Notes under the pieces: model-generated | The model's input: only the letters and a program-made list of their open reading frames with translations | The model's database searches: none | What the model was told of the DNA's origin: nothing | Source of the DNA: Escherichia phage PE37 | Strand: one strand, 5' to 3' | Sequence record: NC_054929.1 | Length of the DNA: 64,000 nt | Made by a program: the position numbers and the translations under genes | Part shown: positions 101 to 37,613 of the stretch, piece after piece | Layout: each line of letters begins with the position of its first letter | Position numbering within the stretch: the stretch's first letter is position 1

Positions 101-1726
<1,626 letters not shown>

Positions 1727-28410: not shown

Positions 28411-28695
28411 ATGAAAACTTATCAAGAATTCACTTCAACGACTAACGCTTCTACTTTGACTGAAGCGACCCTTACTTCTGAAGTTATTAAAGCAAACAAA
28501 GGACGTGAAGGTAAACCGATGATTAGCCTGGTTGATGGCGAAGAAATCAAAGGTACTGTTTACCTAGGTGATGGGTGGTCTGCTAAAAAGGATGGTGCTA
28601 CAATCGTTATCTCTCCTGCTGAAGAAACTGCTTTGTTTAAAGCCAAGCATATTTCAGTAGCTCAGCTTAAAATTATTGCTAAAAATCTTTTGTAA
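28411..28695 (+). CDS. ipI: internal protein I-like, capsid-targeted
   Basis: N-terminal MKTYQEFTSTT capsid targeting sequence; position after 57B; early promoter upstream. Confidence 0.7.
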   Translation: MKTYQEFTSTTNASTLTEATLTSEVIKANKGREGKPMISLVDGEEIKGTVYLGDGWSAKKDGATIVISPAEETALFKAKHISVAQLKIIAKNLL

Positions 28696-29726: not shown

Positions 29727-29799
29727 TGGGAATTAGCCAAGTTGGTAAGGCACTGGATTTTGATTCCAGGATGCAAAGGTTCGAGTCCTTTATTCCCAG
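29727..29799 (+). tRNA. tRNA-Gln (anticodon UUG)
   Basis: Cloverleaf folded by eye: acceptor TGGGAAT/ATTCCCA, anticodon loop TTTTGAT, T-arm GGTTCGAGTCC; CCA not encoded. Confidence 0.8.
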
Positions 29800-29800
29800 C

Positions 29801-29887
29801 GCGAGAATGGTCAAATTGGTAAAGGCACAGCACTTAAAATGCTGCGGAATGATTTCCTTGTGGGTTCGAGTCCCACTTCTCGCACCA
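29801..29887 (+). tRNA. tRNA-Leu (anticodon UAA), type II
   Basis: Acceptor GCGAGAA/TTCTCGC, loop CTTAAAA, long variable arm, CCA encoded. Confidence 0.85.
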
Positions 29888-29892
29888 AATTT

Positions 29893-29966
<74 letters not shown>

Positions 29967-29976
29967 ATTTAATTTA

Positions 29977-30050
29977 CTCCGTGTAGCTCAGTTTGGTAGA
30001 GCGCCTGATTTGGGATCAGGAGGTCCAAGGTTCAAATCCTTGTATGGAGA
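29977..30050 (+). tRNA. tRNA-Pro (anticodon UGG)
   Basis: Anticodon arm CCTGA-TTTGGGA-TCAGG, T-arm CAAGGTTCAAATCCTTG; acceptor has G-U pairs; CCA not encoded. Confidence 0.8.
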
Positions 30051-30052
30051 CT

Positions 30053-30142
30053 GGAGGCGTGGCAGAGTGGTTTAATGCACCGGTCTTGAAAACCGGCAGT
30101 CGCTCCGGCGACTCATAGGTTCAAATCCTATCGCCTCCGCCA
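30053..30142 (+). tRNA. tRNA-Ser (anticodon UGA), type II
   Basis: Acceptor GGAGGCG/CGCCTCC, loop CTTGAAA, long variable arm, CCA encoded. Confidence 0.85.
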
Positions 30143-30147
30143 GTTTT

Positions 30148-30223
30148 GCTGATTTAGCTCAGTAGGTAGAGCAACTCACTTGTAATGAGAAGGTCGGCGG
30201 TTCGATTCCGTCAATCAGCACCA
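30148..30223 (+). tRNA. tRNA-Thr (anticodon UGU)
   Basis: Acceptor GCTGATT/AATCAGC, loop CTTGTAA, CCA encoded. Confidence 0.85.
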
Positions 30224-30224
30224 A

Positions 30225-30299
30225 GGCCCTGTAGCTGGAAGGTTCAAGCAAGCGACTCATAATCGCCAGATGGTGGTTCAATTCCACCCAGGGCCACCA
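30225..30299 (+). tRNA. tRNA with CAU anticodon (Ile2 lysidine-type, or Met)
   Basis: Acceptor GGCCCTG/CAGGGCC, loop CTCATAA, CCA encoded; T4 tRNA-Ile counterpart by position. Confidence 0.8.
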
Positions 30300-30308
30300 A
30301 ATTAATTT

Positions 30309-30395
30309 GGGGAGTTATCCCGTAGAGGTAGCGGTGTGGACTGTAAATCCATTGTCATTGCGACTCGGGTGGTTCGACTCCATCACTCCCCACCA
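30309..30395 (+). tRNA. tRNA-Tyr-like (anticodon GUA), type II
   Basis: Acceptor GGGGAGT/ACTCCCC, anticodon arm GTGGA-CTGTAAA-TCCAT, variable arm with GTC/GAC stem, T-arm GGTGGTTCGACTCCATC, CCA encoded; D-arm imperfect. Confidence 0.6.
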
Positions 30396-30399
30396 ATTT

Positions 30400-30474
30400 G
30401 GATGTGTAGCTCAATGGCAGAGCGATCGCCTGTTAAGCGATTGGTTATAGGTTCGAATCCTATCACGTCCGCCA
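30400..30474 (+). tRNA. tRNA-Asn (anticodon GUU)
   Basis: Acceptor GGATGTG/CACGTCC, anticodon arm ATCGC-CTGTTAA-GCGAT, T-arm ATAGGTTCGAATCCTAT, CCA encoded. Confidence 0.8.
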
Positions 30475-30478
30475 AATC

Positions 30479-30554
30479 CGAGGCATAGCTCAGAAGGAAG
30501 AGCAAGGACCTTCTAAGTCCTAGGTCGTAGGTTCGATCCCTACTGCCTCGACCA
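30479..30554 (+). tRNA. tRNA-Arg (anticodon UCU)
   Basis: Acceptor CGAGGCA/TGCCTCG, D-stem GCTC/GAGC, anticodon arm AGGAC-CTTCTAA-GTCCT, CCA encoded. Confidence 0.85.
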
Positions 30555-35449: not shown

Positions 35450-35980
<531 letters not shown>

Positions 35981-35984
35981 AGTT

Positions 35985-36016
35985 GTTTACTTTCTCCTAG
36001 AATTGTGATAGTATAT
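35985..36016 (+). promoter_or_regulatory. early promoter
   Basis: GTTTAC ... TAGTATAT upstream of denV. Confidence 0.55.
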
Positions 36017-36039: not shown

Positions 36040-36456
36040 ATGACTCGTATTAATTTGACTTTAGTATCTGAACTTGCTGATCAACATTTAATCGCAGAAT
36101 ACCGTGAATTGCCACGTGTTTTTGGTATAGTTCGTAAACATGTGGCAAATGGTAAACGGGTTAAAGATTTTAAAATATCTTCCGAGTTTATTTTAGGTTC
36201 TGGTCATGTTACGTTCTTTTACGATAAGTTAGAATTTTTGCGAAAGCGTCAATCAGACATTATAACGGAATGCTTAAAACGCGGGTTTAGTATAAAAGAT
36301 ACTGAAGTTCCTGACATCGGCGATATTCCAGCAGAATGGAAAAATGATTATAATCCATGCAAATCAGCTATTAAATTGAGTCAACAACGACTCAATGAAA
36401 AAATTTTAATGAAGCCACACTGGTACAAGTATTACGGCAAAAATATTTACATTTAA
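36040..36456 (+). CDS. denV: endonuclease V (pyrimidine dimer glycosylase) DenV
   Basis: 138 aa, [17 protein letters not shown]..., close to T4 DenV from memory. Confidence 0.95.
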
Positions 36457-36465
36457 AGGAAACAC

Positions 36466-36939
36466 ATGAAAACATATCAAGAATTTATTACTGAAGCAGC
36501 TATTAATTCTCAAATTATTGCTGAATCTTTTACTGATCTTTTGAAATTTAAAAAAGGTCAAAAAATCACTGCTGTATTGGATGATGGTACAGAAGTTGAG
36601 ATGGATGTACAGGGATATAATTATGCAGTAGATGGAAAACTGTATAATAAATCTCATGCTAAATTTGATTCATTTGACGACTTTGTTAATACAGTTGAAG
36701 ATGAAAAAACTCGTCGATCCATTGCAACTGGTGATGCTAAGGTTCTTATGGCACATGGTCATGAACGCATTCGCGCTAAACAGAATAAAATGGGCGAAGA
36801 TAATTTCGCATTAGTTGGTTATCAATCTGGTAAACAAACTTATGGTTATCAGCGTACTGCTACCATGTATAATAAAAATGGTAAAATTGCCTTTGTGAAT
36901 AGTAAGGGTTCTATTCAGTACGTTAAATCGTTCAAATAA
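36466..36939 (+). CDS. internal protein (ipII/ipIII-position), capsid-targeted
   Basis: 157 aa, N-terminal MKTYQEFITEA capsid targeting sequence, basic C-terminal region. Confidence 0.7.
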   Translation: MKTYQEFITEAAINSQIIAESFTDLLKFKKGQKITAVLDDGTEVEMDVQGYNYAVDGKLYNKSHAKFDSFDDFVNTVEDEKTRRSIATGDAKVLMAHGHERIRAKQNKMGEDNFALVGYQSGKQTYGYQRTATMYNKNGKIAFVNSKGSIQYVKSFK

Positions 36940-37073
36940 TATGGGAACAGCCTGGACCTCATTTGAGGTATTCCCGCCAACCTGTAATAAGGTCGAGCCC
37001 AAGCGCGGTAATGGGTAAATACAGAAATGGACAATTCATGCGCCATGGAATGGCCCAAACTTAGAGAGAAGAA

Positions 37074-37613
37074 ATGAGAACATTTTTAACTGGTCCTTAT
37101 CTATCCCTGATGAATGCTTTTACACACCATTCTGATGCTAGAGTAGAAGAAATTTGTAAAAACGAATATATCCCGCCATTTGAAGACTTACTTAAGCAGT
37201 ATTGCACACTTCGTATAGATGGTGGACGTCAATCCGGTAAATCAACTGCTGTGACTAACTTTGCTGCTAATTGGCTGTATGATGGTGGAACAGTTATTGT
37301 TCTTTCTAATACTTCAGCTTACGCTAAAATTTCTGCAAATAACATTAAAAAAGAATTTTCTCGTTATTCTGGCGATGATATTCGATTCCGCTTATTTACC
37401 GATTCTGTCCGTAGTTTTATCGGTAATAAAGGAAGCAAGTTCAGAGGTTTATCGCTTTCACGAATTTTGTATATAATTGATGAGCCTGTTAAAGCTCCTG
37501 ATATGGATAAAATTTACGATATTCATATTGAAACTGTACATTACTGTTGCAATAGTAAATGCTGCATTGGTGGTATTACTCGTCCACAGTTTTTCATAAT
37601 CGGAATGCAATGA
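37074..37613 (+). CDS. small P-loop NTPase
   Basis: Walker A GGRQSGKST, Walker B-like ILYIIDEP, 179 aa. Confidence 0.6.
   Translation: MRTFLTGPYLSLMNAFTHHSDARVEEICKNEYIPPFEDLLKQYCTLRIDGGRQSGKSTAVTNFAANWLYDGGTVIVLSNTSAYAKISANNIKKEFSRYSGDDIRFRLFTDSVRSFIGNKGSKFRGLSLSRILYIIDEPVKAPDMDKIYDIHIETVHYCCNSKCCIGGITRPQFFIIGMQ

Follow-up and report, generated by a model that had tools for sequence, protein, structure and literature searches.

The open-reading frame that follows denV in Escherichia phage PE37 is ip4, a T-even internal-protein gene that has already been described and named. From T4 head biology and by analogy with the characterized internal proteins, we consider it probable that ip4 is one of a set of interchangeable genes of this kind and that its product is packaged, processed, injected, and able to block a host enzyme that attacks DNA. 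The gene was studied within the 64,000-nucleotide stretch of PE37 DNA (NC_054929.1), which we call the window and whose positions are used throughout.

Identity and distribution of Ip4

The ip4 coding sequence lies on the plus strand at 36466..36939, where the ORF list gives an ATG start and 157 codons plus TAA, and its product begins with MKTYQEFITEAAINS. A reading made from the sequence alone had called this a 157-aa ORF with the start MKTYQEFITEA and a basic C-terminal part, and both descriptions are exact, with 11 K/R against 2 D/E in residues 101-157 and a pI of 8.9 for the full-length protein. Direct reading of the sequence places a Shine-Dalgarno-like AAGGAA at 36456-36461 (plus strand), its first base being the final one of the denV stop, and ip4 is translationally close-coupled to denV, with 9 nt between the denV stop and the ip4 ATG.

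Residues 1-157 match positions 1-158 of the Pfam profile DUF7412 (PF24183; E 5.7e-96, 319.4 bits against a cut-off of 27), and a PHROG comparison assigns the protein to family 3155, 'internal virion protein' (E 6e-102). It is 100% identical in amino acid sequence to the proteins of phages T2 and RB33 and 99% identical to UniProt Q38388, "Ip4 [Enterobacteria phage K3]", which is also the sole significant structural neighbor of the Ip4 model among predicted viral proteins (TM 0.96). Records annotated as Ip4 or ipIV (ime09, Kha5h, and GiZh) are 98.7-100% identical, and a note in the GiZh record mentions "T2 RB70 Ip4". Because the K3, ime09, Kha5h, and GiZh matches carry this name and the T2 protein is identical, the window gene is the ip4 of the T-even polymorphism literature, and the Ip4 of T2, K3, and RB70 shares its length, its N-terminal capsid targeting sequence (CTS), and its DUF7412 and PHROG 3155 membership, with no difference at the protein level. 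The gene is therefore already known: it is named, present in Pfam and PHROGs, and carried by T2 itself. The name has reportedly been in use since the T-even polymorphism work of Repoila et al. 1994 (EMBO J 13:4181). Both PMC12373910 and PMC3012670 cite that study.

Comparison of ip4 with the GiZh copy showed 0 non-synonymous and 4 synonymous differences, and comparison with the T2 copy showed 0 and 7, while the flanking genes differ by 4-6% of nucleotides in the same comparison. Purifying selection acts on ip4. The full-length DUF7412 match, together with the lack of non-synonymous changes against two relatives, indicates that ip4 is a real gene and not a chance ORF.

A tblastn search of 50,697 phage records found Ip4 in 469 of them, with at least 99% amino acid identity in 289, compared to 198 records for IPII and 261 for IPIII in the same collection. 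A second group, at 60-80% identity, is found in T4-like phages of Klebsiella, Salmonella, and Serratia. The DUF7412 family is small: searches of 5.8 billion and 1.84 billion proteins yielded 14-16 clusters and 7 representatives, respectively. Its members are limited to T4-like contigs, including a metagenomic one on which a remote member (34% identity) has gene 1/Acb1 on one side and vs/rI on the other.

Predicted processing and fold of Ip4

Residues 1-10 of Ip4, MKTYQEFITE (36466..36495, plus strand), form the CTS, which is identical at 9 of 10 residues to the MKTYQEFIAE of T4 IPII and IPIII and ends at a predicted protease site, I-T-E|A. In the T4 record X04567, a removed signal is marked at residues -10 to -1. 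A linker of residues 11-20 (36496..36525, plus strand) follows and ends at a second predicted protease site, I-A-E|S, at which cleavage would leave a mature protein, Ip4*, of residues 21-157 (36526..36936, plus strand; 137 aa, with a computed mass of 15.5 kDa and pI of 9.3). The pattern (I/L)-x-E is recognized by the T4 gp21 prohead protease, and I8-T9-E10 and I18-A19-E20 are the sole [LIV]xE motifs in Ip4. Both glutamates, E10 and E20, are invariant among 13 close relatives and at least 90% conserved in all 15 family members, and the residue at -2 of E20 is always I, M, L, or V in the 13-sequence alignment. Three remote members (34-36% identity) start with the CTS-like sequences MNFEQFLNES or MNFKDFLNES. 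From these motifs, Ip4 is predicted to be cleaved after E10 and probably again after E20, giving a basic 137-residue mature protein.

Removal of about 18-20 N-terminal residues has a precedent in the window itself, since its IPI matches the profile of mature IPI* only from residue 19. This ipI homologue (28411..28695, plus strand; 94 aa; PHROG 4363) matches Pfam IPI_T4 (PF11634) with an E of 5.2e-52, its residues 19-94 corresponding to profile positions 1-76. Its targeting sequence, MKTYQEFTSTTNASTLTE|A, is without the usual I-A-E site at residues 8-10, and its first (L/I)xE motif is L16-T17-E18, a cleavage motif that agrees with the Pfam match beginning at residue 19.

An AF2 model of Ip4 built with the 13 close homologues was unusable (pLDDT 50.7). 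Addition of the three remote members, which came from the profile search of 1.84 billion proteins, gave a model with a pLDDT of 83.8 and a pTM of 0.78, in which the blocks 31-120 and 131-157 reach 85-95. Residues 1-20 are disordered and of low confidence in both models, and the remainder forms a confident alpha/beta body. Structure comparison of the model returned no solved structural relative. A sequence search of the PDB gave a designed propeller as its sole match (E 6e-4), which we regard as spurious.

Proposed function of Ip4

If Ip4 follows T4 head biology, its precursor would enter the scaffold core of the prohead via the CTS, the gp21 prohead protease would cut behind E10 and, probably, behind E20 as well, and the basic Ip4* of about 15.5 kDa would stay with the packaged DNA and then be injected along with the genome. 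The underlying T4 biology of core incorporation, gp21 processing, residence with DNA, and injection is described in PMC3012670. By analogy, the injected Ip4* may then bind and block a host enzyme that attacks the glucosyl-hmC DNA of the phage, and the same analogy makes a type IV restriction nuclease, of a subtype beyond those already tried, its most likely target. To our knowledge, every CTS protein of known function is an inhibitor of type IV restriction. IPI, Ip2, and Ip3 each inhibit one distinct GmrSD enzyme without cross-protection (PMC12373910; also PMC3012670), with IPII and IPIII inhibiting GmrSD-ECOR21 and GmrSD-ECOR17, respectively (PMC12373910).

The likely functional analogue of Ip4 is T4 IPI*. 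Both proteins bear a CTS, are small and basic when mature, and are encoded at a hyperplastic locus, and IPI* undergoes N-terminal processing of about 19 residues and is the product of a non-essential gene. The two differ in length, 76 aa for IPI* compared to 137 aa for the predicted Ip4*, and share no sequence similarity beyond the CTS. A second comparison is offered by Bas37_0260, a CTS-bearing protein at the ipI locus that blocks McrBC (bioRxiv 10.1101/2025.11.20.689424), which indicates that the reach of ip cassettes extends to type IV systems beyond GmrSD. Like Ip4, Bas37_0260 is a non-T4 internal protein tied to IPI-III solely by its N-terminal signal, although it is encoded at the ipI locus and Ip4 at the e-vs.8 locus.

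When ip4-10 were tried against a limited set of GmrSD variants active on T-even phages, no reproducible interaction was seen (PMC12373910, Supplementary Fig. 9), and our literature search found no paper on the function, virion presence, or injection of Ip4. The target of Ip4 may belong to a different type IV family, or it may be a non-restriction system able to sense DNA as it enters. Proteins engaged in an arms race are rarely as near to invariant as Ip4 (at least 99% identity in 289 records), and this conservation counts against an anti-defense role.

That same conservation would suit a constant partner such as DNA, and Ip4 may instead be a generic DNA-associated head protein that neutralizes DNA charge and helps in packaging or ejection without acting on any particular host target. 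The basic character of the protein, with its mature pI of 9.3 and the excess of K/R over D/E in its C-terminal third, fits such a role, as do the fold matches, which are small SH3/Sm/L19-like barrels that often bind nucleic acids, and the failure to find a GmrSD target for Ip4 (PMC12373910). In T4, internal-protein lysines touch DNA phosphates and about 1000 internal-protein molecules lie within the packaged DNA (PMC3012670). However, IPI*, Ip2, and Ip3 are also basic and abundant, yet each is specific for its target; ip genes are non-essential and freely swapped among phages; and a polycation would not need at least 60 invariant residues across a globular fold. We consider such a generic DNA-associated role unlikely, while still giving it appreciable weight as the main rival interpretation.

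Expression of ip4

Two exact matches to the T4-type late promoter motif, TATAAATA, lie upstream of e at 35452-35459 and 35465-35472 (plus strand) and are the nearest late promoter motifs to ip4, about 1 kb away. No exact or one-mismatch match to the motif was found within denV, the nearest one-mismatch site being at 35966. There is, then, no late promoter directly upstream of ip4, which counts against a packaged protein. However, no terminator-like site was found on the plus strand between 35300 and 37700, so read-through transcription starting at the e promoters could plausibly provide late expression of ip4. The e-denV spacer also contains an early-promoter-like cassette, GTTTAC...TAGTATATT (35985..36016, plus strand), which, judged by its sequence, is a candidate early or middle transcription start for denV and ip4.

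The missing late promoter and the close coupling of ip4 to an early/middle gene, denV, would also fit a protein that is expressed but not packaged and acts inside the infected cell, its CTS-like N-terminus being a relic. We regard this as very improbable, since the CTS and both protease-site glutamates are kept at 34-36% identity, which is unexpected for a relic, and since the path from the e late promoters to ip4 is free of plus-strand terminators. An injected internal protein remains our preferred interpretation of Ip4.

The promoter-like cassette of the e-denV spacer, GTTTACTTTCTCCTAGAATTGTGATAGTATATT, has a near-identical copy in Klebsiella phage K65 (L004:2447-2480), where it lies after ipII and before an RNA-like element, and a related cassette precedes T4 denV (L001:5357-5416, minus strand). 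The presence of near-identical cassettes in the window and K65, and of a related one in T4, fits shuffling of genes through shared regulatory sequences.

Relationship to IPII and IPIII and organization of the e-vs.8 region

The sequence-only reading had held that the protein after denV is neither IPII nor IPIII, with T4 lengths given as about 100 and 194 aa, and NC_000866 gives 303 bp (100 aa) for ipII and 582 bp (193 aa) for ipIII. The BLASTP comparison with T-even internal proteins that it had proposed gave no full-length high identity to either one. The alignment with T4 IPIII covers residues 1-13 alone, and that with T4 IPII reaches 27.6% identity over 98 aa (E 8e-6). Once Ip4 is trimmed of its first 11 residues, the E values become 0.22 for IPII and 9 for IPIII, indicating that the weak IPII score derives from the shared CTS. 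IPI, IPII, IPIII, and Ip4 fall into four PHROG families (4363, 7857, 5341, and 3155, respectively); the Ip4 of the window has no match in PHROG 7857 or PHROG 5341, while T4 IPII and a 100-aa protein of K65 match PHROG 7857 at about 1e-54. Likewise, Ip4 gave no match to Pfam IPI_T4 (PF11634) at E <= 0.1, and tblastn of T4 IPII and IPIII across the 64-kb window detected no further copy. The distinction from IPII and IPIII was therefore correct. What T4 IPII and IPIII share with Ip4 is the CTS, the e-vs.8 neighborhood, and a presumed route into the host, whereas they are unlike Ip4 beyond the CTS, differ from it in length, and lie upstream of denV in T4.

Gene order across the region differs among related phages. 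In T4 the order is nudE-e-ipIII-ipII-denV-vs.8-vs.7-vs.6, and in the window and GiZh it is nudE-e-denV-ip4-vs.8-vs.7-vs.6. The order in T2 (PV648364.1; L136, 1219-2405) is e-ip4-vs.8 with no denV, and since T2 ip4 directly follows e, the window represents a third arrangement, unlike that of T2 or T4. The T2 vs.8 region downstream of ip4 is broken into small ORFs. Among Klebsiella phages, K65 has the order e-ip4-ipII-vs.8 and FRZ284 has e-ip4-ipIII-ip(101 aa)-vs.8, and SP18 has denV-ip10-...-vs.8. The tandem arrangement of Ip4 with IPII in K65 and with IPIII in FRZ284 demonstrates that these proteins are not alleles of one gene. The suggestion that ip4 is a diverged ipII orthologue, or a fusion or remnant of ipII and ipIII, which could draw on the IPII BLASTP match and on a tblastn hit of IPII to the ip4 ORF (E 1.7e-4), has next to no credibility given the loss of that score without the CTS, the separate PHROG families, and the occurrence of Ip4 next to a true IPII or a true IPIII; orthology to T4 IPII is rejected at the sequence level.

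With ip genes at homologous positions in T4, T2, GiZh, K65, FRZ284, SP18, and CIP9, the e-vs.8 region is a shuffled cassette region, or hyperplastic ip locus, in agreement with the polymorphism that had been expected of internal-protein loci. It had also been proposed that PE37 carries one internal-protein gene after denV in place of the two in T4. A single gene is indeed present, but the comparison of slots does not hold, because T4 ipII and ipIII lie between e and denV, upstream of the latter, and the window thus has a different cassette arrangement rather than one gene in the slot of two. In the window, denV, encoding endonuclease V, is at 36040..36456 (plus strand), with 76.6% amino acid identity to T4 DenV, and is annotated as denV in GiZh. 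Only one CTS-bearing ORF separates it from what had been described as an unrelated P-loop NTPase ORF, as stated in that description, and the latter ORF is a vs.8 homologue (37074..37613, plus strand; 179 aa; PHROG 1488) with 95% identity to residues 41-219 of T4 Vs.8 and weak AAA and terminase-N Pfam matches. A six-frame scan of the 64-kb window for the CTS motif returned two ORFs, ip4 and the 94-aa ORF at 28411..28695, so that the internal-protein set of the window consists of IPI and Ip4, without IPII or IPIII.

A GC-rich structured-RNA-like element downstream of ip4

The 134 nt between ip4 and vs.8 have a G+C content of 49%, compared to 35% for the window, and hold a GC-rich structured-RNA-like element of about 115 nt (36943..37056, plus strand) with a three-way-junction core at 36973-37020. 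By blastn, the element is found in 1076 phage records, T4-like genera among them, and a 45-nt core is found at 91-93% identity in rV5-like Vequintavirus genomes. Pattern scans of IMG/VR added the N4-like Klebsiella phage Pylas (L046) and an unclassified 96-kb phage, while the core 19-mer had no match in 185,579 representative genomes of bacteria and archaea. Further copies lie in T4 (NC_000866, about 64,794-64,939, minus strand) and at L003:2501-2548, L004:2017-2064, and L004:2539-2586. A covariance model detected a single copy in the window (67.8 bits) and, at ten related loci, further copies that immediately follow an ip gene or denV. In K65, ip4 and ipII are each followed by a copy, two in all.

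At 8 of 9 non-T4-like loci examined, the core lies about 0.2-0.8 kb from tRNA genes on the same strand. The window has its own tRNA cluster at 29727-30554 (plus strand), an uninterrupted run of 10 genes (Gln, Leu, Gly, Pro, Ser, Thr, Met(CAU), Tyr, Asn, and Arg). The corresponding T4 cluster consists of 8 tRNA genes that segB splits, with the stable RNAs rnaC and rnaD coming next. Neither rnaC nor rnaD resembles the element by eye, and they were rejected as its identity.

The 48-nt core (36973-37020) fits a three-way junction, with 79.5% of cells pairing across 28 distinct sequences, in alignments that were chosen in part by the conserved core pattern. The closing helix P2 shows CG/GC/UA/GU exchanges, with pair 5:43 being CG in 22 sequences and GC in 5, and pair 6:42 being CG in 21, UA in 3, GC in 2, and GU in 1. 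Its covariation is 0.167, compared to 0.068±0.014 in shuffled alignments, none of which reached the observed value (0/500), and it falls to 0.067 or less with the partners slid. In the upstream hairpin P1b, pair 10:57 is GC in 9, CG in 4, and AU in 1, with a covariation of 0.114 compared to 0.027 (0/500 shuffles). A Karamvirus-like contig from IMG/VR carries the element twice in tandem (L081, about 560-730, reverse strand), the copies having diverged, and in the second, P3 changes from ACCU/AGGU to GCCU/AGGC and P4 is different (GUC/GAC). These compensatory changes support the P3 and P4 helices.

Other searches for structure or precedent were negative. The single-sequence fold is not exceptionally stable (MFE z-score 0.15), RNAalifold applied to the T4-like copies alone found no compensatory pairs and resolved no structure in the 3′ half of the T4-type element, no Rfam family matches the element at E <= 10, and literature searches on it returned nothing informative. 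Of 52 distinct copies, 33 have a short ORF of 21-54 codons spanning the core and 19 lack one, making a purely coding explanation unlikely, although the core may, on this sequence pattern, encode a micropeptide. The element is probably an undescribed structured RNA that marks the downstream edge of the ip cassette.

This element also bears on the annotation of T4. There, the homologous sequence directly follows the denV stop, and the annotation counts it as the opening 40 codons of vs.8. The equivalent frame of the window (36963-37064; 33 codons) opens with TTG and runs into an in-frame TAG at 37062-37064. A frameshift interrupts it in GiZh, the T2 record lists it as a separate 34-aa ORF, and only 2 of 52 distinct copies, that of T4 and one more, have it fused to vs.8. 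Conservation of the Vs.8 body begins with the ATG at 37074, and the T4 vs.8 annotation (219 aa; L001:4254-4913, minus strand) is probably over-extended at its N-terminus by 40 codons into the RNA-like element.

Implications for T-even phages

These results show that phage PE37 carries an internal-protein set of the T2 type (IPI and Ip4) rather than the T4 type. Having IPI and Ip4 without IPII or IPIII, the phage is predicted to be sensitive to the GmrSD variants that are blocked by Ip2 and Ip3. As the commonest internal protein at the e-vs.8 locus among the phage records searched, 469 of which carry it, Ip4 is a sensible next candidate for anti-defense screens, and the predicted cleavage at E20|S21 together with the confident model provides concrete constructs for such work. 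A more specific proposal, which we put forward tentatively and hold with less than even confidence, is that Ip4 is an injected inhibitor of a host defense other than the GmrSD variants already tried, with a fold that has no solved relative and a cassette bounded by an undescribed structured RNA that accompanies ip genes across T4-like phages. The RNA-like element may in the end matter more than ip4; in the phage genome that has been studied most, a CDS annotation that is probably wrong covers it.
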